Assembly: GCF_988243305.1 (NCBI RefSeq) | Contig: NZ_OZ547136.1 | Reading direction: 5' to 3' (one strand) | Length of the DNA: 64,000 nt | Shown here: positions 11,308-49,104 of the stretch, in pieces | Layout of the letters: each line of letters opens with the position of its first letter | Numbering within the stretch: position 1 is the stretch's first letter | Program-made: the position numbers and the translations under genes | The notes under the pieces: model-generated | Seen by the model: the letters and a program-made list of their open reading frames with translations, nothing else | Database searches by the model: none | What the model was told of the DNA's origin: nothing

Positions 11308-11324
11308 TCAATGCTAAAAACCCC

Positions 11325-11348: not shown

Positions 11349-11368
11349 GTTAATTTGCCTTAAGTGTA

Positions 11369-13346: not shown

Positions 13347-13530
13347 CAATCTACCGGTTATTTTGTAAACCGTTTGTGTGAAACAGGGGTGGCTTATGCC
13401 GCCCCTTATTCCATCTTGCATGTCATTATTTCCCTTCTGCATATAGATATGCTAAATCCTTACTTCCGCATATTCTCTGAGCGGGTATGCTACCTGTTGT
13501 ATCCCAATTTCATACAGTTAAGGACAGGCC

Positions 13531-14502: not shown

Positions 14503-14524
14503 TGCCAGCTTGTTAAAAATGCGT

Positions 14525-14553
14525 AAAAAAGCACCTTTTCAGGTGCTTTTTTG
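14525..14553 (+). terminator. Intrinsic terminator of cysK
   Basis: aaaagcacct-tttc-aggtgctttt hairpin with TTTTTT. Confidence 0.8.
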
Positions 14554-14885
14554 TGGCCTGCTTCAAACTTTCGCCCCTCCTGGCATTGATTCAGCCTGTC
14601 GGAACTGGTATTTAACCAGACTAATTATTTTGATGCGCGAAATTAATCGTTACAGGAAAAGCCAAAGCTGAATCGATTTTATGATTTGGTTCAATTCTTC
14701 CTTTAGCGGCATAATGTTTAATGACGTACGAAACGTCAGCGGTCAACACCCGCCAGCAATGGACTGTATTGCGCTCTTCGTGCGTCGCGTCTGTTAAAAA
14801 CTGGCGCTAACAATACAGGCTAAAGTCGAACCGCCAGGCTAGACTTTAGTTCCACAACACTAAACCTATAAGTTGGGGAAATACA

Positions 14886-15143
14886 ATGTTCCAGCAAGAA
14901 GTTACCATTACCGCTCCGAACGGTCTGCACACCCGCCCTGCTGCCCAGTTTGTAAAAGAAGCTAAGGGCTTCACTTCTGAAATTACTGTGACTTCCAACG
15001 GCAAAAGCGCCAGCGCGAAAAGCCTGTTTAAACTGCAGACTCTGGGCCTGACTCAAGGTACCGTTGTGACTATCTCCGCAGAAGGCGAAGACGAGCAGAA
15101 AGCGGTTGAACATCTGGTTAAACTGATGGCGGAACTCGAGTAA
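14886..15143 (+). CDS. ptsH: PTS phosphocarrier protein HPr
   Basis: 85 aa [23 protein letters not shown] with the active-site His region. Confidence 0.98.
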
Positions 15144-15187
15144 TTTCCCGGGTTCTTTTAAAAATCAGTCACAAGTAAGGTAGGGTT

Positions 15188-16915: not shown

Positions 16916-16955
16916 TCCACGAGATGCGGCCCAATTTACTGCTTAGGAGAAGATC

Positions 16956-17465
16956 ATGGGTTTGTTCGATAAACTGAAATCTCTGGTTTCCGACGACAAG
17001 AAGGATACCGGAACTATTGAGATCATTGCTCCGCTCTCTGGCGAGATCGTCAATATCGAAGACGTGCCGGATGTCGTTTTTGCGGAAAAAATCGTTGGTG
17101 ATGGCATTGCTATCAAACCAACTGGAAACAAAATGGTCGCGCCTGTAGACGGCACCATTGGTAAAATCTTTGAAACCAACCACGCGTTCTCTATCGAATC
17201 TGATAGCGGCGTTGAACTGTTCGTCCACTTCGGTATCGACACCGTTGAACTGAAAGGCGAAGGCTTCAAGCGTATTGCTGAAGAAGGTCAGCGCGTGAAA
17301 GTTGGCGATACTGTCATTGAATTTGATCTGCCGCTGCTGGAAGAGAAAGCCAAGTCTACCCTGACTCCGGTTGTTATCTCCAACATGGACGAAATCAAAG
17401 AACTGATCAAACTGTCCGGTAGCGTAACCGTGGGTGAAACCCCGGTTATCCGCATCAAGAAGTAA
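16956..17465 (+). CDS. crr: PTS glucose-specific EIIA component
   Basis: 169 aa [39 protein letters not shown]... Confidence 0.98.
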
Positions 17466-29432: not shown

Positions 29433-29489
29433 TAAAAAGGCCAGTCAGTTGTGATACTGGCTGGACTTTAATCATCGAATCAGAAACGA

Positions 29490-30473
<984 letters not shown>

Positions 30474-30484
30474 TCAGACGCAAA

Positions 30485-31060
30485 TTAACGCCGCCAGATA
30501 ATTTTACTGACTTTCCAGTTTTTCAGGGTATCGTCCGAAGGCATTAACCCTTCAGGACCACTCCATTCCCCGCTGAACTGGTAGCTAATATGTTGACTGC
30601 CTTCGGCTTTACATTCGACGGCACGATTATCATCACCATCAGCTTTTTGGCAATTGCCAAATGCTTTGCTGTAAAGGTCGCTAAACGGTGTACCGATTTT
30701 AACACCGGTGTCAGCAGGAATATCGCTATCCAGCACATCAATGCGGCTGATCGTACCCTGATCGCCGTTAATCACCATCGCCACGTTGTCGCCTTTCATC
30801 ACTTCAAAAAAGCGCACCACGTTGCCGTTCGCGGTTTTCATTCCGCTGCGCAGGCGATAATCGCCATCAAGCGCATCGGCAATGGCTTGTTCTTGCAGTG
30901 GTGTGGACGCCGTTAATTCACCAACGCCCTGCTCGCTCACTTTGGTGGACGACCCAAACCAGTTCCACGGGTTAGCGGCAGACCAGTTAACTGACGACAT
31001 CGTGGAACAGCCGGTCAGCATCAACGGCATAGCGCATAACATTAAACGCAGCGATTTCAT
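30485..31060 (-). CDS. yfeY: Lipoprotein of unknown function
   Basis: 191 aa with lipobox (MLTGCS). Confidence 0.85.
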   Translation of the reverse strand: MKSLRLMLCAMPLMLTGCSTMSSVNWSAANPWNWFGSSTKVSEQGVGELTASTPLQEQAIADALDGDYRLRSGMKTANGNVVRFFEVMKGDNVAMVINGDQGTISRIDVLDSDIPADTGVKIGTPFSDLYSKAFGNCQKADGDDNRAVECKAEGSQHISYQFSGEWSGPEGLMPSDDTLKNWKVSKIIWRR

Positions 31061-31120
31061 GTCACTTCCTTTGGTTATTCAATAACGTTGCTTGGAGTGC
31101 AAATTCACCAAAAAGTGCCG

Positions 31121-31570
31121 TTATTCTTTTTCTTCATTAAAACAAGCGCGTAAACGTCGATTGGTCAGCAGCCAGATTAACGCCACAATATCCGCCACTA
31201 CCAGCGCCAGCCCGATACCGCTAACGGATTCACCGTTCAGCCACAGCCACGGTTGCCAGCAAAGTAAAACCACCTGCGCCAACAGCAACAGAAAATAGAG
31301 CACATGCCAGATACGGGGAAATGAAGCCCGCCGACCACTCAGCAAAAACGCCAGCACCGCCGGAATGCCGGGAATCAACCCCAGCCAGAAATTATCGTGA
31401 TCGGGATAAAACAGATTTAGCAGCGCAGTACCCTGCTCGCGCGACGCACCAGCAATGACAAACAGCACCCAGGTTCGCGCCTGAAGCAATAGCACAAGCC
31501 AGAAGAGCAAGGGTAAACGCAGGCGACCGTGCGCATCATAATGGACAGGATGAAACTCAGTACTCTTCAT
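31121..31570 (-). CDS. yfeZ: Inner membrane protein
   Basis: Hydrophobic ORF of about 149 aa ([17 protein letters not shown]...). Confidence 0.85.
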
Positions 31571-31982
31571 CTTCAATCAAACGCTTACCCAGACTCAGCA
31601 CGTCGGCGTGTTCATATCCCAGGCGTTCATACATTCCGAGCACCATGTCGTTATCTTCCGGCACGTTGATCTGAATTTTCGGGCAGCCGCGAGCAATCAG
31701 CTTTTTCTCCAACCGATTAAGCAACGCATTAGCAATCCCACGCCCACGAAACTCTGGATGCACGCCAAGATAATAAGCAGACCCGCGATGACCATCATAA
31801 CCGCCCATCACCGTTCCGACCACTTCACCGTTTACCTCAGCGACCAGAAACAAACTGACGTCATGGTTCATCTTACGCTCGATGTCCATTTCCGGATCGT
31901 TCCACGGACGCAGCAAGTCGCAACGCTCCCAAAGGGTGATGACCTCTTCGAAATCTTCCTGGCGAAATACGCGTATCTCCAT
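31557..31982 (-). CDS. ypeA: GNAT-family N-acetyltransferase
   Basis: 141 aa from [24 protein letters not shown]...; GNAT-type Gly-rich motif [10 protein letters not shown]. Confidence 0.85.
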
Positions 31983-32195
31983 GGTATTCGTTACCTTTTT
32001 GCGGGTTAAAAGGCTGATTATGGCGTGAAAGGTCGAATTAGCCAATATCTGACGAAAATCGGTTGAAAAAGTGGCATAATGGGGAGTTGTCAACTATTGA
32101 AATGAAAAGTAAAACAATTCTCATCAGCAAACGGTCGTAACGGATTACGCGATACGATATAACATCTGGAACTTTATTATTACAACTCAGGCCGT

Positions 32196-33065
32196 ATGAG
32201 CACTTTTAAACCACTAAAAACACTCACTTCGCGCCGCCAGGTGCTGAAAGCCGGTTTGGCTGCCCTGACGTTGTCAGGAATGTCGCAAGCCATCGCCAAA
32301 GACGAACCTTTAAAAACCAGCAACGGACACAGCAAGCCGAAAGCCAAAAAATCTGGCGGCAAACGTGTCGTTGTTCTCGATCCAGGCCACGGTGGGATCG
32401 ATACCGGAGCGATCGGACGCAACGGTTCGAAAGAAAAACATGTGGTGCTGGCGATTGCTAAAAACGTCCGTTCCATTTTGCGTAATCATGGGATTGATGC
32501 GCGTTTAACGCGTTCTGGCGATACGTTTATCCCACTTTACGATCGCGTTGAAATCGCCCATAAACATGGCGCAGATCTGTTTATGTCAATTCATGCCGAT
32601 GGCTTTACCAACCCGAAAGCTGCCGGTGCTTCGGTATTTGCCCTCTCTAACCGTGGGGCAAGTAGCGCAATGGCGAAATACCTGTCTGAACGCGAAAACC
32701 GCGCCGATGAAGTTGCCGGTAAAAAGGCGACTGACAAGGATCACCTATTGCAGCAAGTGCTGTTTGATCTGGTGCAAACCGATACTATTAAAAACAGCCT
32801 GACGCTCGGCTCGCATATTCTGAAAAAGATTAAGCCGGTGCATAAACTGCACAGCCGCAACACCGAACAAGCCGCGTTTGTGGTGTTGAAATCGCCGTCG
32901 GTTCCTTCGGTGCTGGTGGAAACCTCGTTTATCACCAATCCGGAAGAAGAGCGGCTGTTAGGCACGGCGGCATTTCGCCAGAAAATCGCCACAGCGATTG
33001 CCGAAGGCGTGATCAGTTATTTTCACTGGTTTGACAACCAGAAAGCACACTCGAGAAAGCGGTAA
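32196..33065 (+). CDS. amiA: N-acetylmuramoyl-L-alanine amidase
   Basis: 289 aa with Tat-type signal (RRQVLKAGLAAL). Confidence 0.95.
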   Translation: MSTFKPLKTLTSRRQVLKAGLAALTLSGMSQAIAKDEPLKTSNGHSKPKAKKSGGKRVVVLDPGHGGIDTGAIGRNGSKEKHVVLAIAKNVRSILRNHGIDARLTRSGDTFIPLYDRVEIAHKHGADLFMSIHADGFTNPKAAGASVFALSNRGASSAMAKYLSERENRADEVAGKKATDKDHLLQQVLFDLVQTDTIKNSLTLGSHILKKIKPVHKLHSRNTEQAAFVVLKSPSVPSVLVETSFITNPEEERLLGTAAFRQKIATAIAEGVISYFHWFDNQKAHSRKR

Positions 33066-33968
<903 letters not shown>

Positions 33969-33973
33969 CTCCC

Positions 33974-35026
33974 TCACCCCCATTCCCGCATCCGCTGATG
34001 CAGCGTCAGTGACGGCTTCTCGGCAAACAGTTGCTGATAATCCGTGGCGAATTGCCCCAGATGCCAGAATCCCCACTGCATGGCGGCGTCTTTTACCGTT
34101 GTGCTTTGCGACCAAGGGCTTATCAGTTCGCGGCGTACGGCGTTCAGGCGAATGCGTTTCAGCCACGCATTTGGGCCAATGCCTAAAATAGCGTGAAACG
34201 CGTTTTGTAGCGTGCGGCGGCTGACATGCAGTTGATTACACAAGTCCAGCACCGTCACCGGCTCAGACATATTTTCCAGCACATATTCACGGGCGCGGGA
34301 AAGTAATCTACGGTAACTCTGATGACTGATGCTTTCCGCCGTCACCATTGGTTGCGCTTCTTCCAGCATCGCCCCCATCGCCATGAGCAAATTATCCCCC
34401 AGCACTTTTCGCACTGCAGGCTGATGAAGATTTTCCGGGTTCTCGCAAAATGTCGCCAGCGCCTGTTGGACAAAGCCCCACAGCGCGGCTTTATGCTGCT
34501 CTTTCACTTCCAACGCCGACTGGCTACGCAGCATATGTAATACCCGATCCGGATTATGCAAAAAGTTAGCCTGACGGGTGATGACATCTTCAGAAAGCAC
34601 TACGCCCAGGATCGTGTAATCGTCCGGCGTACTTAATTCAAACTCGGTTCCACCAGGGCGCGTCGCTATTTCTGCGCTTCCCAGACATTGCGAACCGATA
34701 AATCCCTGCTCACCGCGCGTCGCCGGAATGCCAAACCAGAACGAATTCGGCCAGACCAGGCACGACTGACGCAGCGCCAGACCAGTGTATTCACGAAAAA
34801 CCTGAATATCATCGAGTAGAATTTCCGTAAATTCACCATGAAACTTGCCCGGATGCAGCTGATCGTAAATCTGCTGCCAGGCGGTAATCGTCAAAGCATG
34901 TTCATAGACATCCGTTGTCTGTCGTTGATGAACATTATCCACTTCGACCTTCGGCGTGAGCTTCAGGTTTTCGGGTAAGGGTTCATGATAAAGATGGTGC
35001 AAATTGGCTGTACGGGTCTTTTTCAT
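33974..35026 (-). CDS. eutR: AraC-family activator of the eut operon
   Basis: 350 aa; C-terminal AraC-type HTH. Confidence 0.93.
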
Positions 35027-35071
35027 GATGTTAATGCCGGGTGTTGTAGGACACCCGGCACCTCCGACAGG

Positions 35072-35572
35072 TTAATGGGGCTTGAGACGATAACGACTAC
35101 TGCGTTTACGTAACGTCCCGGCAGAAAAGAGCTGTTCGAGCGCATTTCTGGCTTTTTCGAGCGGCCAGCCAAAGTGGGCTGCCACTTCTCCTGCCGTCAT
35201 TCCCTGACGTACTGATGTTAACAGCGCCAACAACTCGTCAGCAGATTCCGCGACGATAACTGGCGCGTCGGGTTCCTTTACGGGTTGCTTCGGCTGGCGG
35301 TTAAAGCCAGTAACCAGCCACTGGGTGTCATCGTCTGGCCGACCGATCTCCTTACGGCTGATGACACGCCCGGTACGCATCGCGGCAGCACAACCTGCGT
35401 CCAGCGCCGCACGACACGCCGCCAGATCGCCTTCCACCACCAGCGTTAGGCGACCAGGGTCAAGCACTTCGTGACTGAGCAGACGAACGTTAGCTGCTTT
35501 GAGCATGGCATCAGCTGCATCTATCGCGGCGACCATGCCGTCCACTTCCAGCAATCCCAGTGCATTGATCAT
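35072..35572 (-). CDS. eutK: Microcompartment shell protein EutK (BMC domain + C-terminal helix-turn-helix)
   Basis: 166 aa MINALGLLEVDGMVAAIDAADAMLKAANV..., BMC fold signature. Confidence 0.9.
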   Translation of the reverse strand: MINALGLLEVDGMVAAIDAADAMLKAANVRLLSHEVLDPGRLTLVVEGDLAACRAALDAGCAAAMRTGRVISRKEIGRPDDDTQWLVTGFNRQPKQPVKEPDAPVIVAESADELLALLTSVRQGMTAGEVAAHFGWPLEKARNALEQLFSAGTLRKRSSRYRLKPH

Positions 35573-35584
35573 CGGCAACCTCCG

Positions 35585-36244
35585 TTACGCACGCTGGATA
35601 GGATTACGCGCGATTTCCAGCACTGCATCGGTAAAGGCGTTACAGGCTGCTTTACACGCGGCCTGGCTACCGGTTAAAAATGCTGCCGAGTAGTTGGTTT
35701 CAGACGGCGGCGGGACATAGGTCACCAGCTGCACGTCGGCAGATTTCAACGCTGCATCAATGCCATAGGTCGCTTCCAGCGGCGGTGCCACCAGATACGC
35801 CATCGGATCGCCAAGCGTGATCCCGGCGGTTGATGAGAGATAAGAACCGGTACGCGAAACTACATGTGCCAGGAAGGCTGTATTTTCTGCGTCATTAGCC
35901 CACTGGAAAGCCGCGCCATTTTCAATATGCGCAACCATCGCATCCAGACCAGCACGCACTTCCGCCGGGTTTGGCCCACCGAGCATAATCAGCACTTCAC
36001 CGGCAGTCGGTGACGGTCCGTGTGCAGCTCCCGCATACAGCGAGCGGCCATACACCACTTCGACCATCGCCTGCTTGGTCGCTTCGTCAGCCGCAATGTA
36101 GGTGACGTCATCGGAATCAGCAGAAATCAGCCCGAGGCTACGAATATGCGGCGGCAATTTCAGTTCACGCGCAAATTCGGCGTTAACGGAGGCAATCACC
36201 CGCATGGCGGTGACCGACGGTCGAATCAAATCTAAAGCTGGCAT
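35585..36244 (-). CDS. eutL: Microcompartment shell protein EutL (tandem BMC)
   Basis: 219 aa, position in eut operon. Confidence 0.93.
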
Positions 36245-36253
36245 GATGCCTCC

Positions 36254-37141
36254 TTATCGGGTCATGTTGATGCCGGATGCTTTCTGCTCCAGCATACGTT
36301 TCGCCAAATCCACAATGACGGCTGCGGCTTCAACCGGCGGCGTGCCGCCCTGGTGAATGTTAGAGATACAGGTACGGTCGGCCTCAACGGTGGTTGCCAT
36401 ACGCGGCGAGTAAACGGCGTAGCAGGAGAGGCTTTCTGACTGCCCTAATCCCGGGCGTTCCCCCACCAGTAGGATCACTACTTTCGCGCCGAGGATCTCA
36501 CCGATCTGATCTTCAATCTTCACGCGACCATAACGAACAAAGAATGGTGTACCGACTTTCAGCCCGGCCTGTTTCAGGCCCGCCATCAGCGGTGGCAGGA
36601 TCTCTTCGTAGTTCACGGTGATCGCATCAGTTGACAGCCCATCAGAAATAACGACCTGCACGTCCGGATTGGCAACACACTGCGCTTTCAGCGCTTCAAC
36701 AGCTTCTGCACACAGGCGGCGGCCCATATCCGGACGAGTCAGGTAGAGATTTTTGTCGCTAATTTCAGAGCGGACTTCCAGCAAGCCCTGCGCTTTCACC
36801 CACTCTTCCGGCACTTCTTTCAGTACGGTATCTTTCGAACGAGAGTGATCGGCCAGGAAACGCAGCAACGCCTGGGTACGCGGACGCGGACCGGCACGAC
36901 CGGTACAAACGCGGGCCACGGTGCTGCGACGCAGTTCTGTTAATACGTCTGCGCGATGCGGGTTTTCAACACCAATCCACGCTTTTGCTTCCGCAGAGCC
37001 TAAGTCCAGCGCGCAGCTTTCCGAGGTCACCGGTGCCGCACAGGTGGTGGTGGCGCACTTTGCTTCTGACGGCGCGGGGGCCGCTTGTCCCATTGACGCC
37101 ATCACGCTGCGTACAATTTCTTCAATCTGTTTTTGATCCAT
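36254..37141 (-). CDS. eutC: Ethanolamine ammonia-lyase small subunit
   Basis: 295 aa following eutB. Confidence 0.95.
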
Positions 37142-37161
37142 GATGTGTTATCTCCGCGTCA

Positions 37162-38523
37162 TCAGAAGAACAGTGACGGATCGCCCGCCCGTTTGGTCAG
37201 GCGACCGTTTGCCATAATGCCCATGCTTTCCAGCCAGCGTTCAAACTCCGGTGACGGGCGCAGGTTGAGTAACTGACGCACAGTGGCAGTGTCGTGGAAT
37301 GCGGTGGTCTGATAGTTGAGCATGATGTCATCGCCCAGCGGCATCCCCATGATGTAGTTGCAGCCTGCGGTGGCGAGCAGGATCATGAGGTTTTCGTTGA
37401 GGTTCTGGTCAGCGTCAGCGTGGTTGGTGTAGCAGCAGTCACAGCCCATAGAGATGCCGCTCAGCTTACCCATAAAGTGATCTTCTAAGCCCGCACGGAT
37501 AATCTGGCGGTCGTTGTAGAGATACTCCGGCCCAATAAAGCCGACCACGGTGTTGACGATAAACGGATCGTAATGACGCGCCAGCCCGTAGTTACGCGCT
37601 TCCATCGTCACCTGGTCTGCGCCGAAGTTAGCGCCAGCAGACAGCGCCGAACCTTGTCCGGTTTCGAAGTAGAGGCAGTTTTCCCCGGCGATACGGTTGA
37701 ACTCCGCGCCCACTGCGCGCGCTTCGTCGAGCATCGCCAGTTCCACGCCAAACTCTTTCAGCCCTTTTTCGCTGCCGCAGATACTCTGGAAAATCAGTCC
37801 GCCAGGCGCGCCGCGACGAATTGCTTCAATCTGGGTGGTGACGTGCGCCAGCACGCAGCCCTGGGTCGGAATGTTGTATTTGTCGATCACGCCATAGATG
37901 GTGTCCAACACGCGGCTTAAGTTTTCCACGTCGTCAGTCACCGGGTTAACGCCGATCACCGCATCGCCCACCCCGAAAGAAAGCCCTTCGTAGATTTGCG
38001 CGGCGATACTTTGCACGTCGTCACGGGTGTCGTTTGGCTGCAAGCGGGCGCTGAAGGTGCCCGGAATACCGATGGTGGTATTGGCCTTTTTGATCACCGG
38101 CATTTTCTTCGCGCCGTAGATCAGGTCCGCGTTGGAGCAAATCTTCGCTACCGCCGCGACCACTTCCGAGGTCAACCCTTTGCGGGTAAAGGCAATGTCG
38201 TCAACGCTGGTTTCGTCGCTCAGGACGTATTCACGCAGTTCGCTGATGCTCCAGTTTTTAATCTGGTTGTAGGCCGTTTCGTTAACGTCGTCCTGAATCA
38301 GCCGCGTCACGCAGTCATCTTCATAAGCAATCACCGGATTATTGCGGATGTCCGCTACGGTCATTTCCGACAACACCTGCTTTGCCGCCACGCGCTCCTG
38401 TGAGCTTGCCGCTGCGACGCCCGCCAGCACATCCCCCGAACGCAGTTCGTTGGCTTTAGCCAGCACCTCTTTTACATCCTTAAACTGATATACATTGCCG
38501 AACAATGTGGTCTTTAGTTTCAT
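37162..38523 (-). CDS. eutB: Ethanolamine ammonia-lyase large subunit
   Basis: 453 aa MKLKTTLFGNVYQFKDVKEVLAKANELRSGD... Confidence 0.96.
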   Translation of the reverse strand: MKLKTTLFGNVYQFKDVKEVLAKANELRSGDVLAGVAAASSQERVAAKQVLSEMTVADIRNNPVIAYEDDCVTRLIQDDVNETAYNQIKNWSISELREYVLSDETSVDDIAFTRKGLTSEVVAAVAKICSNADLIYGAKKMPVIKKANTTIGIPGTFSARLQPNDTRDDVQSIAAQIYEGLSFGVGDAVIGVNPVTDDVENLSRVLDTIYGVIDKYNIPTQGCVLAHVTTQIEAIRRGAPGGLIFQSICGSEKGLKEFGVELAMLDEARAVGAEFNRIAGENCLYFETGQGSALSAGANFGADQVTMEARNYGLARHYDPFIVNTVVGFIGPEYLYNDRQIIRAGLEDHFMGKLSGISMGCDCCYTNHADADQNLNENLMILLATAGCNYIMGMPLGDDIMLNYQTTAFHDTATVRQLLNLRPSPEFERWLESMGIMANGRLTKRAGDPSLFF

Positions 38524-38534
38524 AAGTCGTTCCC

Positions 38535-39938
38535 TCAGGAAGGAAATGCGAGTGATTTCACCGTCACCGGCACAACCGATCCGCCAAAAAGAGGCGTACC
38601 AATGTCGATATAGTCCCCCGCGCGGACAATCACTTCGTCAATGACTGCCAACGGGAGTTGTTGTAGCTGTGGGCGCAACAACATGCCCAGAGCTTTACCA
38701 AAGTCCTGCCCGGCCACCACCAGCAGGGGATGCGGATTCGGAAAACGCGCGACGAAATCGACCAGCGCGTTGATGACCGTCAGTACCGCGGCGTAACGCA
38801 CAGGCAGCGAGGCGGGAAGCGCCAGCACGTACGCGTCAGAATTGGGATCAAGATCCAGCTGAATCAGCGCCTGTTGCCAGGCACTCACCAGATCCGTTTC
38901 ATCAATTGGGATCGCCACCGGCAAATTGCGCAGCGGCAGTTGTACGCCCTCCAGCCAGATTGTGCTGCCAGAGAGCGAAAGGGTATGTGCACCCGCGCCA
39001 ATCACCGTGGCGCGTACGGTTTGCGCCGGAAACTGCACGTTCATCTCACGCAGGCGCGGATGGTCATGCAGCGCCGTTGCCAGAAGCGGGCCAATATCGG
39101 CAAAACAGAACGGGTCGGCGGGCTGGTGGCGATAACATTCGCCCACGCCGCCAGAAAGCGTAATGATTTCGGGCGTAACACCTGCGGGCAGCAAACCGGT
39201 TTGCATCAATGCCTGCGCGAGCGGCGAGAGCGTTCCGTCAATCACTTCGACAATCAGCTCTGCCATCCGCCGGGTAACCTGCACCAGCTGCGCGCCGGTC
39301 AGCGAACGGGCGTCGGTGCCTGCGCCGAAGCACTCATCCACAATCATCTGCCCCGGTTTATGAGCGTAAACCACGCGCCCCTGGCTGTCGGTTTCCAGCA
39401 GGCGACCACCGACGTTGAGGCAGGCAGTGCCGCTGATTTTTCCGGCATCGAACAGGGCGTAGTTCGCGGTGCCACCGCCGATGTCGATATTCAGTACCCG
39501 ACACAGCCGTTGTTCAGAAAGGGTTTGCGCCCCGGCACCGTGACCGGCGATCACGGATTCGAGATGCGGCCCGGCGCTGGCGACGACAAAATCGCCCAGC
39601 GACTGGGAGAGCGTCATCACCGCCGGGCGAGCGTTGCGGGTTTTCGCGCTTTCACCGGTGATGATGATGGCACCAGAATCAACGCTTTCCGGCGCAATGC
39701 CCGCAGCCTGATATTGCTCGAGGATTAAGGTTTTCAGTTCCGCTTCTTTTAAACCACCCTGTTTATCGACAGGGGTAAAGAACACCGGGCTTTGCCAGCT
39801 AATTTCGCGTTTGATGAATTCGTAGCGCGGCACCTGCGACACCGCCGCACGGTTAACCAGCTCCAGGTGGGAGAAGATCACTTGGGTGGTGGTGGTGCCG
39901 ATATCGATACCGACGCTCAGTAGCTGGCGAGTGTTCAC
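38535..39938 (-). CDS. eutA: Ethanolamine ammonia-lyase reactivase
   Basis: 467 aa; 11-bp spacer to eutB. Confidence 0.95.
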   Translation of the reverse strand: MNTRQLLSVGIDIGTTTTQVIFSHLELVNRAAVSQVPRYEFIKREISWQSPVFFTPVDKQGGLKEAELKTLILEQYQAAGIAPESVDSGAIIITGESAKTRNARPAVMTLSQSLGDFVVASAGPHLESVIAGHGAGAQTLSEQRLCRVLNIDIGGGTANYALFDAGKISGTACLNVGGRLLETDSQGRVVYAHKPGQMIVDECFGAGTDARSLTGAQLVQVTRRMAELIVEVIDGTLSPLAQALMQTGLLPAGVTPEIITLSGGVGECYRHQPADPFCFADIGPLLATALHDHPRLREMNVQFPAQTVRATVIGAGAHTLSLSGSTIWLEGVQLPLRNLPVAIPIDETDLVSAWQQALIQLDLDPNSDAYVLALPASLPVRYAAVLTVINALVDFVARFPNPHPLLVVAGQDFGKALGMLLRPQLQQLPLAVIDEVIVRAGDYIDIGTPLFGGSVVPVTVKSLAFPS

Positions 39939-41161
39939 GATTGTGCCTCCGCTTCGGTTTTGGCCGCGGTCGCGTCTTCTTTTGGCACCAGCATCATCGC
40001 CACGCCAATCGCCGTTACGCCGCCGATCAACTTGCCGACAATCATCGGGAAAATCATGGCGTTCATGTTGGCAGCGGCGAAGCCTAAGTGGTCACCCAGG
40101 GCGAAAGCAGCGGAAACGGCGAAGGCGCAGTTGATGACTTTGCCGCGGGTATCCATCTGCTTCATCATGCCAAACATTGGGATGTTGTTGGCAAGCGTTG
40201 CCACCATGCCAGCTGCCGCGATATTGTTCATATTCAGCACTTTACCGACGCTCATCAGCGGTTTTTCAAACCAGCGGGTCAGCAGCAATACCATCGGGTA
40301 CGCCCCTAACAGAACACAGGAGATAGAACCGATAACTTCAATGGCGCGCATCACTTCACCGGGTTTATCGCCAGGGGCCATAAAGATAGGATCCAGACCG
40401 GGGATCAGTTCCCAGCCAAGGAGGAATTTCACTACCGCGGCAGCAAGACCGAGGGTGATCAATGCAACGAGGAATTTGGCGAAGATCTGGAAGCCGTTGA
40501 TCATTTTTTCCGGGATGAATTTCAGCCCCAGCGCCACCAGCACCGCAACGATAAGTACCGGGATCATGTTCATCAGGATCAGCGCAAAGGTGAATTCCAC
40601 CGGCTGACCGTTGATCTGCACACCGGAGTACATAGCAACCAGACCACCAGCAATACAGCCAATCGGAATGGTCACAATGCCCGCCAGCACGCCGAGCGCC
40701 AGATAACGACGGTCAGAAGGTTCGATAATGCCGAGCGCCACCGGAATGGAAAACACAATCGTTGGCCCCATCATCGACCCGAGAATTAACCCAGAGTATA
40801 GCCACGCTGCTACGTCGCCGCCCGCCAGCTCTTTGGCGAGGAAGAAGCCGCCCATATCGCACGCCAGCAGTGTTCCGGCGAACATCGATGGGTTAGCGCC
40901 GAGCATTTCGTAAACCGGGATAATCACCGGTCCGAGTACGTGGGCCAGAACAGGTGCCAGCGCGGTCATACCAACCATCGCCAGGCCCAGTGCGCCCATT
41001 GCCATAAAGCCTTCTTCGAACTGCCCGCCGGATCCTTCGATACTTTTACCGAACTTACCGAGGAAACGAGCAGAACCGCCGAACTGCGACAGGATCCTGT
41101 CTACGGCAGCTATCAGCATAAAGAACATCATGATGTACATGATGATTTCGTTAATTCCCAT
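39935..41161 (-). CDS. eutH: Ethanolamine permease
   Basis: 408-aa polytopic membrane ORF. Confidence 0.95.
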   Translation of the reverse strand: MGINEIIMYIMMFFMLIAAVDRILSQFGGSARFLGKFGKSIEGSGGQFEEGFMAMGALGLAMVGMTALAPVLAHVLGPVIIPVYEMLGANPSMFAGTLLACDMGGFFLAKELAGGDVAAWLYSGLILGSMMGPTIVFSIPVALGIIEPSDRRYLALGVLAGIVTIPIGCIAGGLVAMYSGVQINGQPVEFTFALILMNMIPVLIVAVLVALGLKFIPEKMINGFQIFAKFLVALITLGLAAAVVKFLLGWELIPGLDPIFMAPGDKPGEVMRAIEVIGSISCVLLGAYPMVLLLTRWFEKPLMSVGKVLNMNNIAAAGMVATLANNIPMFGMMKQMDTRGKVINCAFAVSAAFALGDHLGFAAANMNAMIFPMIVGKLIGGVTAIGVAMMLVPKEDATAAKTEAEAQS

Positions 41162-41277
41162 CGCCTTTACTCCCTGTTAGTTGTTATTTATTGCCAATGC
41201 TGAAAGTGGGTTTTTCCCTCACTCTGGAAGCCGAGGGGCCGGGGTGAGGGTAATTGTTTGCACCGGCGCGACTCTGT

Positions 41278-41328
41278 TCCCCTCACCCTAACCCTCTCCC
41301 CAAAGGGGCGAGGGGACTGTCCGTACAC
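41278..41328. repeat. GC-rich dispersed intergenic repeat, copy 1 (between eutG and eutH)
   Basis: tcccctcaccctaaccctctccccaaaggggcgaggggactgtccgtac; near-identical copy at 54671-54720; partial inverted copies (gggtgaggg / ccctcactc) at about 41215-41255. Confidence 0.8.
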
Positions 41329-41330
41329 TT

Positions 41331-42518
41331 TTATTGCGCCGCTGCGTACAGGCCGACAATCTGCTCCAGGCTGGCGGTACGCGGGTTGCTGCGCAGACAA
41401 ATATCTTCCAGCGCGGCCTGCGCCCATGCACCGTAATGCGCAGATGTCGCACCAATATCGCCCAGTCGTTTACCAATCCCGACTTCCGCAATCAGCTCAC
41501 TTACCGCGTTAATAGCGTCACGATCGTCGGATTTTTTAGTTCGCAGCGCCCGACCAATCTGACTAAAGCGTTCACGACAAACCATCCGGTTAAATTCCAT
41601 CACCGTTGGCAGCAACATGGCGTTCGCCAGACCGTGCGGAATATGCAGCGCCGCCCCTGGCTGATGCGCCATCGCGTGGCACAACCCAAGCCCCGCACTG
41701 GAAAACGCCATTCCCGCCATACATGAAGCCAGCAACATGCTCTCGCGGGCGGCAAGGTCGTGACCGTAGCCCACCGCTTTCGGCAGTGATTTACCAATCA
41801 TCGCGATTGCGCCAATCGCCAGGCTGTCGGTAAACGGTGTAGCGTTCAGCGCGCTGTACGCTTCAATAGCATGGGTTAACGCATCAATGCCGGTCATCGC
41901 CGTGACATGCGACGGCACGCCTTCGGTCAGCGCAGCGTCGAGAATCGCCACATCCGGCATCAGCGAGGCGTGGGCTAACACCTGCTTGCGCCCGCTCACA
42001 GCGTCGATAATCACCGTTACGTTGGTGGTTTCAGAGCCGGTTCCGGCGGTCGTTGGAATGGCAACCAACGGCAGGCGCGGTTGCAGAATGCTGGTTTCTG
42101 ACATTTCTGCCAGCGTGCTATCGGGATTCGTCACCAGCAACGCCACGGCTTTTGCTGCATCCAGCACCGAGCCGCCGCCAAACGCAATCACCCCGTCACA
42201 GCCTGATTCACGCAACTGCGCCACGGCTGCACACACGTCGGTGATGCACGGTTCGCCCACCGGACATGGCCAGAGCGTCATGGCGATACCTTTAACGGCC
42301 AGGCTACGCGTCAGCCCGGCGGTCATCCCCGCCTGATGCAAAAAGCTGTCTGCCATCACGAACAGATGTTTCAGCCCACGCGTTTGCGCTTGCTGCCCGC
42401 AACTGCTCACCGCGCCCGGACCGCAAAGCGTCACCGGTGGAACGCTAAATGTTTTTACCCGTTGCAGATTCAGGGTATCGAACGCCTGAAAGAGCGCGGC
42501 CTGCAATTCATTTTGCAT
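41331..42518 (-). CDS. eutG: Iron-containing alcohol dehydrogenase
   Basis: 395 aa, Fe-ADH family. Confidence 0.95.
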   Translation of the reverse strand: MQNELQAALFQAFDTLNLQRVKTFSVPPVTLCGPGAVSSCGQQAQTRGLKHLFVMADSFLHQAGMTAGLTRSLAVKGIAMTLWPCPVGEPCITDVCAAVAQLRESGCDGVIAFGGGSVLDAAKAVALLVTNPDSTLAEMSETSILQPRLPLVAIPTTAGTGSETTNVTVIIDAVSGRKQVLAHASLMPDVAILDAALTEGVPSHVTAMTGIDALTHAIEAYSALNATPFTDSLAIGAIAMIGKSLPKAVGYGHDLAARESMLLASCMAGMAFSSAGLGLCHAMAHQPGAALHIPHGLANAMLLPTVMEFNRMVCRERFSQIGRALRTKKSDDRDAINAVSELIAEVGIGKRLGDIGATSAHYGAWAQAALEDICLRSNPRTASLEQIVGLYAAAQ

Positions 42519-43344
42519 AGATCCCCTCCGCTTTCTCTCGCCCGCTACTGGCGATCGCCAGCGGGGTCATAAACAAACTGTGTTGCGGTAGATGCACCTG
42601 TAACGCCGGGAATTGTTTGCAAAACAGTTCCGCCACGCCCGGTTGCATACAGGAGCCGCCCGCCAGCCATAAATCAGTAATGCCCTGCCCTTCAATATGC
42701 CGGGCGACAATGTCCGCCATTTTTTCGTACACCGGTTTCACCGCAGGCCAAATCTCGTCACCGTGACCGCGTTTGTACTGCTCTGCCTCTTCCAGCGAAA
42801 TACGGCGATTTCCGGCGAGAGTCAGAGAGATGTGATGTCCGCCGGTGGCTTCATCCGCCGAGTACGTCACTTTGCCCTTTTTCACGATGGCAATGCCGGT
42901 AGTGCCGCCGCCGATATCCACTACACCGGCGTTGTCCAGTTGCAGCAGATCCGCAACTGCGGTTGGCTCATCCAGCACATGGCTCACTTCCAGTCCGGCA
43001 GACTCCAGCACGTTGATGGAAATACGCGGGTCCGTACCAGGAGGAAATGAGGTCGCCGCATGGCTAAAACGGCGACCGAATTGCTGCTCAAGAGTGTCGA
43101 GATGGCGACGAACAATGGTGACCGCACCGAAGAAATCCCAGACGATGCCGTCGCGGACCACATCAGCCCAGTCGAGGCATACCGCCACCGGCTGACCGTC
43201 GCGGTCGACAACCATCGACACCACATCGCAGGTGCCCAGATCCACCCCCAGCCACAGCGGAGATTCCGTCGCGGCAGGCGTCTGGTTACACAGCGTTGCT
43301 GCTATGTGCAGACGTGGGGTGAGCCATTGTTCGTCGTGCGCCAT
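42508..43344 (-). CDS. eutJ: Hsp70/actin-fold chaperone-like protein EutJ
   Basis: 278 aa with DLGTCD / DIGGGTTG ATPase motifs. Confidence 0.95.
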   Translation of the reverse strand: MAHDEQWLTPRLHIAATLCNQTPAATESPLWLGVDLGTCDVVSMVVDRDGQPVAVCLDWADVVRDGIVWDFFGAVTIVRRHLDTLEQQFGRRFSHAATSFPPGTDPRISINVLESAGLEVSHVLDEPTAVADLLQLDNAGVVDIGGGTTGIAIVKKGKVTYSADEATGGHHISLTLAGNRRISLEEAEQYKRGHGDEIWPAVKPVYEKMADIVARHIEGQGITDLWLAGGSCMQPGVAELFCKQFPALQVHLPQHSLFMTPLAIASSGREKAEGIYAK

Positions 43345-43354
43345 CTGTTACTCC

Positions 43355-44758
43355 TTAAACAATGCGAAACGCATCGACTAATACACAGCGACGCAGACGG
43401 ACAAACGTCCGCGCGCTGGTTACCCCTTCACCGGTTGGCGTGGTGATGGTCATGGTGGTCCAGCCTTCCCCGCCCAGCCCCAGCCCGGCAATGCACGGTC
43501 CGTTCTTAACGAAAATGCTGGTATCAATGGCATTCGCCATCTGGTTCATGTTCTCGATATTGCGCGAGTGCATTGCCGCCGTGTGGTGGCAACCGCCTTC
43601 CAGTTTCACCGCCAGCGCAATGGCATCCGCCACGTTGGCAACGCGCACGACGGGCAGCACCGGCATCATCAGTTCAGTCACAGCAAACGGATGTTCTGCG
43701 GTGGTTTCTACAAACAGCAGTCGCGTTTGTTCCGGAACTTTAAGGCCGATTGCCGCCGCGATTTTCGCCGCATCACGACCAACCCAGTCACGGCTGACGG
43801 TGCCTTTTCCGCGCTCGTCGATATTTTTCAGCAACACCGGTTGCAGCTGCTGCGCCTGCTCTGCGGTCAGTTTCACCGCGTGCTGGCCTTCCATCAGACG
43901 CATCAGTTCATCGGCTACGCTATCCACAACAATCAGTACCTTTTCGTCGGCACAAATGATGTTGTTATCGAAAGACGCGCCTTTGACGATGGACTGAGCA
44001 GCACGGGCGAGGTCAGCGGTTTCATCCACCACTACCGGCGGGTTGCCAGCGCCTGCGGCAATCAGACGTTTATTGGTGTGTTTACGCGCCGCTTCTACTA
44101 CCGCTTCGCCGCCGGTCACCACCAGCAGGCCGATGCCCGGAAACTTGAACAAACGTTGTGCGGTTTCGATATCCGGATTGGCCACAGTAACCAGTAAGTT
44201 TTCCGGCCCGCCTGCGGCAACAATCGCCTGGTTGAGCAGCGTGATCGCCCGCTGGGAGACTTTTTTCGCCGCCGGATGCGGGGCAAAAATGACGCTGTTG
44301 CCCGCGGCAATCAGGCTGATGGCGTTGTTAATTACGGTTGCCGCCGGGTTGGTGGACGGAGTTACCGAAGCCACCACGCCCCAGGGCGCGTTTTCAATTA
44401 AAGTCAGGCCGTTGTCGCCCGTCAGCACTTGCGGAGAGAGACACTCAACGCCTGGCGTGCCGCGTGCCTGAGCGACGTTTTTGGCAAATTTATCTTCGAC
44501 GCGCCCCATGCCGGTTTCACTGACGGCAAGTTCCGCTAAATCTCTGGCGTGTTTTTCGCCTGCTTCACGAATGGCAGCAATGGCTAACTGGCGCATTGCC
44601 ACGCTCTTTAACCCTTGCTGGGCAATTTTGGCTGCCGCAACGGCGTCATCCAGGGACGCGAAAACGCCCATCTCATGAACGGCGGCGGGCGGCGTATCAC
44701 TGCTTTGCATTTTCAGCAGTACCGCTTTCACCACCTGTTCAATATCCTGTTGATTCAT
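43355..44758 (-). CDS. eutE: CoA-acylating acetaldehyde dehydrogenase
   Basis: 467 aa aldehyde dehydrogenase family. Confidence 0.95.
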   Translation of the reverse strand: MNQQDIEQVVKAVLLKMQSSDTPPAAVHEMGVFASLDDAVAAAKIAQQGLKSVAMRQLAIAAIREAGEKHARDLAELAVSETGMGRVEDKFAKNVAQARGTPGVECLSPQVLTGDNGLTLIENAPWGVVASVTPSTNPAATVINNAISLIAAGNSVIFAPHPAAKKVSQRAITLLNQAIVAAGGPENLLVTVANPDIETAQRLFKFPGIGLLVVTGGEAVVEAARKHTNKRLIAAGAGNPPVVVDETADLARAAQSIVKGASFDNNIICADEKVLIVVDSVADELMRLMEGQHAVKLTAEQAQQLQPVLLKNIDERGKGTVSRDWVGRDAAKIAAAIGLKVPEQTRLLFVETTAEHPFAVTELMMPVLPVVRVANVADAIALAVKLEGGCHHTAAMHSRNIENMNQMANAIDTSIFVKNGPCIAGLGLGGEGWTTMTITTPTGEGVTSARTFVRLRRCVLVDAFRIV

Positions 44759-44769
44759 GATGTTCTGCC

Positions 44770-45057
44770 TTATTTGTGGAAAATTACCTGACCGCCAGAC
44801 ACCACCTCATCGACGATGCCAATCACGCACAGATCGACCGGTGACGTTTCGCTTTTATGCGCCTGTCGGGCGGAACTGCCACTCACCAGCAACACCCACT
44901 CCCCGGTTCCCGCGCCAATATTGTCGATGGCGACGGCGCATTGCCCGTCAGGATTACCTTGTGGATCAATCATTTCCACCATCAGCAATTTGTCATGCGC
45001 CAGTCCGTGATGGCGTACGGTACAAACAATTTGTCCAGTGACGACTGCCAGTTTCAT
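44770..45057 (-). CDS. eutN: Microcompartment vertex protein (BMC-P)
   Basis: 95 aa MKLAVVTGQIVCTVRHHGLAHDKLLMVEM... Confidence 0.95.
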   Translation of the reverse strand: MKLAVVTGQIVCTVRHHGLAHDKLLMVEMIDPQGNPDGQCAVAIDNIGAGTGEWVLLVSGSSARQAHKSETSPVDLCVIGIVDEVVSGGQVIFHK

Positions 45058-45110
45058 ACCCGCCTCCGTGGCGTATTTCAGGTAAAAGCTCCCCCTACCC
45101 TCCGCGGAAG

Positions 45111-45156
45111 GAAAACTGAAAAAGGAGAGAGCGTGACGCCCGAATCGACGTCACAC
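45111..45156 (-). promoter_or_regulatory. Hairpin plus U-rich tract just after eutM (candidate partial terminator or mRNA-stabilising structure)
   Basis: On the minus-strand mRNA: GUGUGACG-ucgauucggg-CGUCACGC followed by UCUCUCCUUUUUCAGUUUUCC, starting 7 nt after the eutM stop. Confidence 0.3.
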
Positions 45157-45163
45157 AGGGTGA

Positions 45164-45457
45164 TTACAGGTTGCTGCTATCGCCTTTCAGGCCGATCGGG
45201 AAGACTTCTTCCAGGTCGCCGTGCGGACGCGGGATAACGTGAACAGATACCAGCTCGCCGATACGCTGTGCCGCTGCGGCACCGGCATCGGTCGCGGCTT
45301 TACAGGCTGCAACATCACCACGAACCATGGCAGTACACAGGCCGCCGCCAATCTGCTTAACACCAACCAGCTTGACGCGCGCAGCTTTCACCATCGCGTC
45401 AGAAGCCTCAATCAGTGCAACCAGGCCCCGGGTTTCGATCATTCCTAATGCTTCCAT
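45164..45457 (-). CDS. eutM: Major microcompartment shell protein (BMC-H)
   Basis: 97 aa [40 protein letters not shown]... Confidence 0.96.
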
Positions 45458-45495
45458 TGTGCTTTCCTCTTTATCAGGGTCCAGAACGGGACCGT

Positions 45496-46512
45496 TCATT
45501 CAACCAGTGTTTGTAAACTGCTTTCGCGGTTCACTTCTGTCTGACGCGGCACAGCTGCCACCAGCGCCAGCTCGATAATTTCCTGCACGCTACAACCACG
45601 AGAGAGATCGTGCATCGGCGCGGCAAGTCCTTGTATCAATGGCCCGACGGCACGATATCCGCCGAGTCGTTGTGCGATTTTGTAGCCAATATTTCCGGCT
45701 TCCAGCGACGGAAAAACCATCACATTGGCCTTGCCTTGTAGCGGGCTGGCAGGCGCTTTTTGCGCCGCCACTTCCGGCACGAAGGCGGCGTCAAACTGCA
45801 ACTCGCCATCGACTACCAACTGCGGCGCGCGCTCACGGACGATTTCTGTCGCCTGCTGGACGTTGGCAACGCAGGGGTGACGGGCGCTGCCGTTACTGGA
45901 AAACGACAACATCGCCACGCGCGGTTCTTCTCCGGTGATGGCCTGCCAGGTTTCGGCGCTGGCAAGCGCGATATCCGCCAACTGCGCCGCCGTCGGCTGT
46001 GGCACCACGCTGCAATCGGCAAAACCCAACGCCGGACCGCTGTACTGTGGCAGCATCAGGAAAATGGATGAGAGCGTTTTACAGCCTGGCTGCAAGCCGA
46101 TAATGCGTAATCCGGCACGCAGCACATTCGCCGTGGAAGAGAGGTTGCCCGCGATACAGACATCCGCTTTACCGGCGCTGACCATTGCTGCGGCGAACAT
46201 CAGCGGGTCGGTAAGTTTTTCCTGCGCATCCGGCGGCGTTTTTTCGCCCGCGCGGGCCAGCCAGCGATGAGCAAATTCTTCCCGCATTGCGAGGTTGCCA
46301 TGCGGATCAATCACCTGTAGCCCGTCCATCGCTACGCCATGACTGAGCGCAAACTGACGAAGTTCAAACGGATTAGCGACCAGAATGGGCGTTGCCAGAC
46401 CTTGTTGATGTAAATATTGCGCCGCTTTCAGCACACGCTGATCTAACGCATCCGGAAAAACCACTCTGGCGGGCGCTCGCAACGCCAGTTCACGACAACG
46501 TTCAATAATCAT
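45496..46512 (-). CDS. eutD: Phosphotransacetylase
   Basis: 338 aa PTA family. Confidence 0.95.
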
Positions 46513-47312
46513 TGCGTTTCCCCCAGTCGTTGTTGGATCTGCTTCACCGTTAGCGGCGGCTTCGTTACGCTCAGGATCATCATCACGTAGACCGTGCTGG
46601 AAAGGCGGTTCAGCGCCTGCAAGATGTCCGGGCGTAATACTTCAAAGCTGCGGGTGATAAAGACCTGCGCCGCTACGGTTTCGGTTTCCCGCACTTTGGT
46701 GCGTAGCAGATTGAGCAACGCCGCATCGCGCCCGTGGCTGGCTTCCGGCACCAGATGATCGTGGTCGAGATAGCGCAGCGGCTGATGAGAAAGCCGATGC
46801 AGATCTTCGTCAGAAAGCCCGACAATCGCTTGATCGCCCAGCGGTTCCCCCAGCGCATCGGCACGCATAATGTTGCCAAGACGCGAACGGATATCCGCCA
46901 GCCACGGCTGCCACGGTTCCGCCAGTTCAATTTGCAGCCACACTGCCAGCGCAATGGTGCTGTCGAGAACCGCGCGAAAACCCAGACGCGGATCGCTTTT
47001 GGCGACCATTTTTTCAGCCGACAGATGAGTCAGCGTGTCCGGCTTTTTTGCCACCGGCTGGCGGCACAGTTCGCAGCACGCCTGCGGATGTTCATCGCTA
47101 CTGGTCAGCCCGTGAACGGGCTGTGGCTGCTGCTGCTCATCGTCAACAAACAGGCGGCCCTGCTCGTCAATAAACTTGATGCGCAGATGGCGGCTTTCCA
47201 GTAACTCCCGGGCAGAGGGCGTCAGGCGACTGTCCGCAGGGAGATGGATCTCTGCGCCTTCGCTGAGCGTATGGTTCGCTCTTAGCCATGCTTCGGTGAT
47301 GAAATCGTTCAT
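46509..47312 (-). CDS. eutT: Ethanolamine-utilisation cobalamin adenosyltransferase
   Basis: 267 aa, 4-nt overlap with eutD and eutQ. Confidence 0.93.
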
Positions 47313-48010
47313 AGGGATTGCCAGTTAGCCGGCCAGGCGACATACAGGAATTTCACGCTGGATGTCGTACCAAATTCGATGCTGGAGCCTTTCGGGATAA
47401 ACATCACGTCACCCGCTTTGGCGATCATGGTTTCGCCTTCGTGGCGAACATGCAGCTCCCCTTCCAGCACCATGTCGATTTCGTCGTAGTTCAGGGTCCA
47501 CGGGAAGAAGGCGTTGTCCCACTGCATAAAACCGGCGGCCATGCTGCTGCCGTCGTCTCCGGTCACAAGATCAGTCAAGCCCACGCAATGCGGCTCTGCG
47601 CCGTCGAAACGACCAAACTTGACGCTGCTGCCATCAATCACTTTGATGCCGCCTTTGCCGGTCACCGATTTGAAGCTCGGCTGCATTGCGCCCTGCTCCA
47701 GCGACTGTTTTTCCTTCATCACTTTTTCCATCAGCTGCGCGACCAGGCTTTCGGTAAACTGGCCTTCCGGTAGCTGGGCGATGATGGTTTCGCGGATGCG
47801 CTGGCTTTCGGTTTTATCGGCTGGCACGCTGGCGGGAACGGACGCCGTTACCGGGGTCGATTCATCACATTCGGTGATGGTAAAACCCAGTAGATCCGCC
47901 ACTTCACGGGCTTCCGGGGTAATAATGCTGGCGCGCAGAACCACGGACATTGCCTGTTCGCCGCGCGCGTGTGCTTCACGAATATCATTCGCTGTGATGA
48001 GTTTTTTCAC
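47309..48010 (-). CDS. eutQ: Cupin-fold EutQ protein
   Basis: 233 aa, operon position. Confidence 0.93.
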   Translation of the reverse strand: MKKLITANDIREAHARGEQAMSVVLRASIITPEAREVADLLGFTITECDESTPVTASVPASVPADKTESQRIRETIIAQLPEGQFTESLVAQLMEKVMKEKQSLEQGAMQPSFKSVTGKGGIKVIDGSSVKFGRFDGAEPHCVGLTDLVTGDDGSSMAAGFMQWDNAFFPWTLNYDEIDMVLEGELHVRHEGETMIAKAGDVMFIPKGSSIEFGTTSSVKFLYVAWPANWQSL

Positions 48011-48464
48011 CTGCTTCCTCCTGTTTGGTGAGAGATGCCAGATAATCCACCAGTTGCTGCACGCTTTGCGGGTCGTGGCTGTTTAGCTCGAAAATCGGCT
48101 CTTCGAAGCCCGTCTCAAGCAATAACTTTCGCGTTGCGGCGACGTCAGCATCTGGCATGTCCGTTTTACTGATGACGGCGATTTGCCGTTTGCTGACGCC
48201 AATATCCAGCAACCCGGCAGGCAACCGACTTTCCGGGTCATTCGCGCCGTGGACATAGATCAGCATGTCCACATCCTGTAGAGTGGTAATTAAGGCGTGA
48301 TACCAGCGGGGATGGCTAAAATATTCACCCGGCGTATCAATATCACCCTTATCATTAAATTCTACGGCCTGCGTTTTTCTGGCGAGGGTATAATTCCCCT
48401 GCAACGCATTAAATAACGTTGTTTTTCCTGCCCCGACGGTACCCACAAACGCAATTCGTTTCAT
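47985..48464 (-). CDS. eutP: P-loop NTPase EutP
   Basis: 159 aa with Walker A GTVGAGKTT. Confidence 0.93.
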   Translation of the reverse strand: MKRIAFVGTVGAGKTTLFNALQGNYTLARKTQAVEFNDKGDIDTPGEYFSHPRWYHALITTLQDVDMLIYVHGANDPESRLPAGLLDIGVSKRQIAVISKTDMPDADVAATRKLLLETGFEEPIFELNSHDPQSVQQLVDYLASLTKQEEAGEKTHHSE

Positions 48465-48476
48465 GAATGCCTCGTA

Positions 48477-48812
48477 TTAACTTTTGGTCATTTCACAAAG
48501 CGTATAATTTAATAAGCGACCTAAACCGCTGACGGTTTGTGATAATGCTTCTTCTACTGCGCCTACCGAGCCATAAATCACCAATGCACCGCTGAAGCGG
48601 TCGAGAAAACCGATATGCACATCAGCGGCTTTCAGCGCTAAATCACCGGCGATCATCGCCGTTTCGCCAGGAGTTAGCGTCATAATGCCGATTGCGCCCG
48701 CATCCGGAACGCCGATTTTCTTCGCCAGTTCCTCGCCGGGATGCGCGATGAGATGCGCCAGCGTGACCTGTTTGCCGGGCACAAATTCCTGAATGATGCG
48801 TTCTTTATCCAT
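48477..48812 (-). CDS. eutS: Microcompartment shell protein EutS (permuted BMC)
   Basis: 111 aa from [23 protein letters not shown]...; first gene of the operon. Confidence 0.93.
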
Positions 48813-49054
48813 GAGTCGCCGCCTGTGAAAAACTTTCGTGTATCGTGACAATTTTTCGTCAGAGTAAATAACAAAATTCGGCAAGCGCGTTTAAAAGGTG
48901 AGGTAGATCACTAAGAATGGAGAGATATTTACTGTTATGAATAAACTTTCATATGCGACGCATGAATATAAATAAAATAATATCGAGATATTTCATATAC
49001 TGCTTTTTTTATTATTCGTAAACTCAGTAATAAGCTTTACTAATATATTTCAGG

Positions 49055-49087
49055 AAAACCGCTTACCCTGAATATTCAGGGTAAGCG
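49055..49087 (-). terminator. Intrinsic terminator of maeB
   Basis: Perfect 14-bp palindrome cgcttaccctgaat / attcagggtaagcg followed on the minus strand by a T-run, 18 nt after the maeB stop. Confidence 0.75.
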
Positions 49088-49104
49088 TGAGAGTTAAGAA
49101 TGAA

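Follow-up and report, generated by a model that had tools for sequence, protein, structure and literature searches.

Escherichia coli K-12 carries the cryptic prophage CPZ-55 (intZ...yffS) inside its eut operon, between eutA and eutB. Here we ask what state this site is in within the window, the whole stretch of 64,000 nucleotides that was analysed, and what that state says about the strain from which the DNA came. The initial annotation had placed eutA and eutB 11 bp apart, had concluded that CPZ-55 is absent and had attributed the window to a lineage with the ancestral, unsplit operon. The sequence comparisons described below make it nearly certain that the window derives from a non-K-12 E. 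coli, that its eut operon is ancestral and uninterrupted and that IntZ-family elements have an attachment site (attB), here unoccupied, at the eutA-eutB junction. The absence of CPZ-55 is a statement on the presence or absence of an insertion, and chance is no useful question in its case.

An uninterrupted junction in a non-K-12 eut operon

The + strand at 38518-38544 reads ...TTTCAT AAGTCGTTCCC TCAGGAAGG..., where the CAT at 38521-38523 is the eutB ATG of the - strand, AAGTCGTTCCC fills the 11 bp of 38524-38534 and the TCA at 38535-38537 is the TGA stop codon of eutA. The distance of 11 bp between the two genes is therefore exact, as read from the sequence and the ORFs. The eutB Shine-Dalgarno sequence, GAGGG, overlaps the eutA TGA and has a pyrimidine-rich tract immediately 5' of it. 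No ORF, and hence no IntZ-type tyrosine integrase gene, was present between eutB and eutA in the sequence and the ORF list. No evidence contradicted the intact junction, and this structure is confirmed.

Genes were identified by NCBIfam equivalog or subfamily models scoring above their curated cut-offs (Table 1). All 17 eut genes were assigned in this way, including those for both lyase subunits (EutB and EutC), the reactivase EutA and five microcompartment shell proteins (eutS, M, N, L and K). They lie on the - strand in the canonical order eutS-P-Q-T-D-M-N-E-J-G-H-A-B-C-L-K-R with no foreign ORF among them, in agreement with the initial annotation, which had called eutSPQTDMNEJGHABCLK and eutR contiguous. 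The eut ORFs are all full length relative to their profiles, the AraC-type regulator EutR is last, and the biggest gap inside the operon is the 169 bp between eutH and eutG. The gene order is the same as in the annotated operon of the wild isolate MEI003, and MaeB, HemF and AmiA (NCBIfam) flank the operon. The operons of Salmonella enterica and of non-K-12 E. coli such as Nissle 1917 match this one gene for gene, all 17 being in identical order and orientation up to eutR at the end, and in them too 11 bp separate eutA from eutB. Compared with the operons of Salmonella and other E. coli, there was no structural difference and the divergence was ordinary (~84% identity to Salmonella and 97-99% to E. 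coli). The Nissle and Salmonella eut operons have also been drawn with identical organisation (PMC7617246).

Table 1. Positions of the eut genes and of the features at the eutA-eutB junction in the window
Feature	Position	Strand	Profile or remark
eutS, first gene	48477..48812	-	NF012012, residues 25-135 of a longer ORF; 111 aa, ATG at 48812
eutP	47985..48464	-	NF012011
eutQ	47309..48010	-	NF012001
eutT, corrinoid adenosyltransferase	46509..47312	-	NF011595
eutD, phosphotransacetylase	45496..46512	-	NF007233
eutM, major shell protein, 97 aa	45164..45457	-	NF012018, residues 15-111; listed ORF to 45499
eutN, shell vertex protein	44770..45057	-	NF011992
eutE, acetaldehyde dehydrogenase	43355..44758	-	NF011927
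eutJ	42508..43344	-	NF011660
eutG, alcohol dehydrogenase	41331..42518	-	NF011998
eutH, ethanolamine permease	39935..41161	-	NF011665; 4-nt overlap with eutA start
eutA, ethanolamine ammonia-lyase reactivating factor, 467 aa	38535..39938	-	NF007991, 1070.7 bits, full length
attB core, unoccupied	38535..38542	.	TCAGGAAG; 8 bp, eutA stop codon plus 5 nt; single copy
eutA-eutB spacer	38524..38534	-	11 bp; coding strand GGGAACGACTT; identical spacing in 35 species
Near-invariant island	38420..38619	-	~200 nt; last ~30 eutA codons, spacer, first ~30 eutB codons
eutB, ethanolamine ammonia-lyase large subunit, 453 aa	37162..38523	-	NF011649, 664.7 bits
eutC, ethanolamine ammonia-lyase small subunit	36254..37141	-	NF003971
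eutL, shell protein	35585..36244	-	NF011934
eutK, shell protein, 166 aa	35072..35572	-	NF012010 from residue 3; listed ORF to 35578
eutR, AraC-type activator, last gene	33974..35026	-	NF007522, 790 bits

Some further features were seen in and around the operon. Upstream of eutS, 17 nt past the maeB stop codon, a perfect 14+14 palindrome at 49060-49087 is followed by GTTTTT. It is an intrinsic terminator of the usual kind, lies between the maeB gene and the AT-rich promoter region of eutS and insulates eut from maeB. The eutH-eutG intergenic region (41162-41330) holds a GC-rich repeat (...CCCCTTTGGGGAGAGGGTTAGGGTGAGGGG...) without megablast alignment to K-12, and its length varies by strain, with 169 bp here, 216 bp in MG1655 and 515 bp in A10. 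Further away, a tRNA cluster of three Val(tac) and one Lys(ttt) followed by an RtT element lies at 2052-2605, and the STnc490 sRNA lies at 193-316 (-).

The K-12 operon has the same genes and flanks and differs by a 6.8-kb insert at a duplicated core. In the RefSeq annotation of MG1655 (NZ_CP012868), eutB and eutA are separated by intZ, yffL, yffM, yffN, yffO, yffP, yffQ, yffR, yffS and an ORF of 41 aa, which make up an insert transcribed opposite to eut (positions 10501-17301 of locus L001). The same position of CPZ-55 is given in three papers (PMC6379469, PMC6652756, PMC7617246). The suggestion that CPZ-55 lies elsewhere in K-12, which would make the adjacency of eutA and eutB uninformative, can thus be set aside, since the annotation and all three papers put intZ...yffS at this place and the K-12 genes are not adjacent in the alignment to MG1655. 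Megablast against the MG1655 locus aligned 29438-38557 of the window with the eutB side of the insert and 38535-41193 with its eutA side, and a megablast of the whole window found no match to the 6.8-kb insert. Only the eut flanks align, and the absence of CPZ-55 called from the window's letters is upheld. The further remark that this absence helps to account for the lack of any mobile element is circular, as lacking CPZ-55 is one instance of having none.

Reduced-genome and prophage-free strains of K-12 exist, and a precise deletion in such a strain could produce a junction of this kind. The window, however, shares only 96.9% identity with MG1655 in the flanks common to both (96.2-97.1% across 13 kb of flanking genes), is closer to the wild isolates MEI003 and A10 (98.5-99.0%) and differs in the eutH-eutG repeat region. 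Because of this divergence from MG1655, we give no credence to an engineered K-12 derivative from which CPZ-55 was removed. The best match among complete RefSeq genomes reached at most 99.1% over 24 kb. Loci of separate Escherichia species (L011, L024, L026 and L037) were 92.6-95.1% identical to the window, and a locus labelled as a Citrobacter MAG (L031) was 97.4% identical. Judged by these identities, the window is E. coli sensu stricto outside K-12. It is colinear with MEI003 over 61.8 kb at 98.5% identity with 34 gap positions, and the sole structural difference is three copies of tRNA-Val in the window versus two in MEI003. In this colinear span, between yfeD/gltX and dapE, MEI003 has neither a transposase nor an integrase annotated. 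One of the loci listed above, L011 (NZ_JAATUR010000016.1, 'E. coli SCPM-O-B-8794'), had 92.6% identity over 10 kb of eut, below that of E. whittamii (94.3%), and probably belongs to a separate Escherichia lineage despite its E. coli label.

The junction as an empty attachment site

The crossover core was defined by aligning the window junction with both K-12 junctions and with two other occupied genomes, BMH-17-0027 and 19SZHZ886Rt. The core, TCAGGAAG, was found at both ends of each element, with a single substitution in one attL copy (19SZHZ886Rt). The window has no duplicated core flanking an insert; its one copy has nothing inserted beside it. Joining the K-12 attL host arm, one core and the attR host arm gave the window sequence exactly over the 71 nt compared. 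The host arms were the same in BMH-17-0027 and, apart from the substitution in the attL core, in 19SZHZ886Rt. As far as these alignments reach, the window junction is the exact empty attB for a family of IntZ elements of which CPZ-55 is one member.

The element in BMH-17-0027 is 13.0 kb long (L005 20001-33003), and that in 19SZHZ886Rt is 11.5 kb long (L006 20001-31470), carries gadC and murI as cargo and contains IS1 and IS903B. Across these two and the 6.8-kb CPZ-55, intZ DNA is 85-90% identical and the cargo differs, while the boundaries are identical. The element-side sequence by the core imperfectly resembles attB (AAT-CGA-TGATT versus AATGCGAGTGATT). IntZ itself matches the PHROG integrase family, and its annotation includes an arm-type DNA-binding domain. 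Because diverged elements share exact boundaries, the element side has this likeness to attB and the integrase is of this family and domain, the data point to site-specific recombination by the tyrosine integrase of a family of small elements. An 8-bp duplication at the CPZ-55 insertion has been reported previously, and the event was called 'transposon-like' (PMC6379469), a description from which the shared boundaries lead away. A different prophage has been described at the same eutA-eutB site in the UPEC strain U71 (PMC6652756).

Sites of tyrosine integrases are known at the 3' ends of conserved genes, such as that of e14 at icd and those of P4-type integrases at tRNA genes. The eut site resembles these in that its core takes in the gene end and stop codon, the flanking genes stay intact and several diverged elements with related integrases share exactly one crossover. 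It differs from them in lying inside an operon, where insertion is polar on five downstream genes with no CDS broken, and in that the identical core is only 8 bp. Nothing resembling an attP for the junction turned up in a phage collection, where the one match was Salmonella host DNA filed as phage. The closest deposited phage integrases were only ~43% identical to IntZ, and no IntZ relatives were found in an IMG/VR scan. CPZ-55 encodes an integrase along with YffL, which weakly resembles replication initiators, and the TerS-like YffO. The resemblance of this gene set to a phage satellite is only a lead, and a literature search returned nothing relevant on a satellite assignment of CPZ-55.

Two observations concern occupied sites. 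At the right end of CPZ-55, the ATG of the 41-aa ORF (WP_001270762.1, L001 17176-17301, - strand) abuts the eutA TGA as TGAATG, and this ORF could be translated by coupling to eutA. The end sequence matching this region is similar, though not identical, in the BMH-17-0027 and 19SZHZ886Rt elements. In strain 102651 (L007, NZ_CP189662.1), the occupied site is scrambled by IS1, IS3 and three copies of IS903B. There, intZ is inverted and later IS903B-mediated rearrangement has truncated both eutA and eutB, and the locus is an example of post-integration decay.

Prevalence, age and consequence of the uninterrupted state

Of 5426 complete E. coli genomes, 4964 (91.5%) have the junction uninterrupted, as judged by one-piece matches to a probe of 1011 bp with the junction at its centre. 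About 8.5% have no contiguous junction. A prevalence of 8% has been published (PMC6379469). Full-length CPZ-55 at an identity of at least 99% was present in 213 genomes, and the carriers in an even sample of these 213 were all K-12 laboratory derivatives or transconjugant recipients such as J53. About 200 more genomes gave partial matches of 80-90%, mostly to intZ, and carry other IntZ-type elements of the family, of 11-13 kb, at the same core.

Beyond E. coli, one genome per species was scanned for the first 20 EutB codons, written as a degenerate pattern, which recovered 35 species, including Citrobacter, Klebsiella, Salmonella arizonae, Yokenella, Pluralibacter, Pseudocitrobacter, Intestinirhabdus, Escherichia whittamii and other Escherichia. 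The distance from the end of EutA to the eutB ATG was 11 bp in every one of the 35, and none had an insert. A Salmonella enterica Kentucky fragment has the same uninterrupted 11-bp junction. This fragment (L043, OR850921.1, 'Salmonella phage S.Kent 1-2-1') is a 4.9-kb unverified record, colinear with the window from eutR to eutA at 84% identity, and appears to be Salmonella chromosomal DNA misfiled as phage. Since the 35 species and Salmonella enterica are all uninterrupted, the uninterrupted junction is ancestral and the K-12 arrangement derived. The ancestral, unsplit operon proposed in the initial annotation is thus supported, with the caveat that it is the majority state of E. coli and marks no special lineage, K-12 being the exception.

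The same empty sequence might instead have been restored, if an earlier IntZ-type element had been lost by precise integrase-mediated excision. The site is indeed reused, with at least three distinct elements at the same core among the ~8.5% of genomes that are not contiguous, and precise excision would recreate exactly the sequence observed; the two histories yield an identical sequence in the window lineage. However, the window has no scar and its core is in single copy, and with the empty state found in the E. coli majority and in all 35 species, parsimony favours a site that was never occupied. We consider excision very improbable. The empty junction is a common, ancestral and already published state, and the family of occupying elements and the loss of eutB induction in BW25113 have likewise been published.

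In K-12 BW25113, ethanolamine plus B12 induces eutS and eutR but not eutB (qPCR), no microcompartments are seen by electron microscopy and there is no growth with ethanolamine as sole carbon source (PMC7617246). All three traits, eutB induction, microcompartments and growth on ethanolamine, are present in Nissle 1917 and Salmonella, whose operon is intact (PMC7617246). With no insert at the junction of the window, transcription from the promoter upstream of eutS could pass eutA into eutBCLKR. The source strain would then be expected to induce ethanolamine ammonia-lyase and to build Eut microcompartments, a prediction made from sequence only. We infer that it behaves like Nissle 1917 and Salmonella and not like BW25113. 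The window is not K-12 and probably has a working eut operon, as E. coli does by default; K-12 is an atypical reference for ethanolamine metabolism.

A conserved island around the junction

The junction lies in an island (Table 1) that is conserved, synonymous sites included, in Escherichia, Salmonella, Citrobacter, Klebsiella, Yokenella, Pluralibacter, Pseudocitrobacter and Intestinirhabdus, with the attB core sitting mid-island. This conservation holds across 30 non-Escherichia species; the choice of species by an unchanged EutB N-terminus may enrich for a conserved island, but conservation is strong outside the pattern as well. The 45 nt before the eutB ATG are identical in 35 species except for two single substitutions, and the EutA proteins are mostly 82-93% identical. 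Between -100 and +95 of the ATG, identity to the window was mostly 94-100%, compared to 76-88% in the flanks (ungapped comparison; one outer bin had lower values for three loci). When whole eutA and eutB from 19 sequences were aligned, the mean pairwise identity at third positions was 0.92-0.99 in the island versus 0.69 overall. Third positions were invariant in 25 of the last 30 eutA codons, which lay outside the EutB search pattern, versus 149 of 861 elsewhere (17%; Fisher p = 2e-14). The Salmonella enterica fragment was 100% identical over 38500-38599 compared to 84% overall.

Along 33000-50000, where coverage thinned towards eutS, no other stretch was as long or as conserved as the island. 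The next conserved stretches, of ~70-80 nt each, were at the eutB/eutC junction, near the 5' end of eutA and at the 5' end of eutM.

Ordinary selection on the translation initiation region of eutB is the conservative explanation for the centre of the island, although it is not obviously enough for 200 nt. A bolder and, in our estimation, doubtful reading is that the island is an overlooked cis-acting RNA or DNA element, that IntZ elements evolved to use this attB because of its invariance across hosts and that the K-12 prophage cuts the element in half. Such a cis-acting island might set the translation of EutB(CLK), or mRNA processing, relative to EutA. The invariance of the island across many hosts is offered as the rationale for the target choice of the integrase.

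Searches for a known or structured element at the island were negative. No Rfam family matched 38200-38900 at E<=10, and a whole-window scan at Rfam gathering thresholds returned only tRNAs, RtT and STnc490, all distant from the junction. The island RNA was no more stable on folding than its shuffles (MFE z-score +0.35), and no long-range complementarity or repeats involving the island were found. A small hairpin, UUUCCUU / GAGGGAA, over the eutA stop codon and the eutB Shine-Dalgarno sequence was weak (-6.2 kcal/mol, z -0.8) and is not claimed. An overlapping ORF was also considered and rejected, as alternative frames in the island gave only short antisense ORFs without support. At the junction, scanning for the sigma-70 consensus gave nothing promoter-like. 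Because of this, and because eutB is uninduced when split off (PMC7617246), an inducible internal promoter directly before eutB is unlikely. The searchable literature held nothing relevant on an internal promoter or on synonymous conservation here. We did not find the conservation island in the literature and report it as a side observation. If the synonymous constraint is real, the island would be a point at which the ratio of lyase to reactivase is controlled, and would account for an integrase family choosing an unusual intra-operon target.
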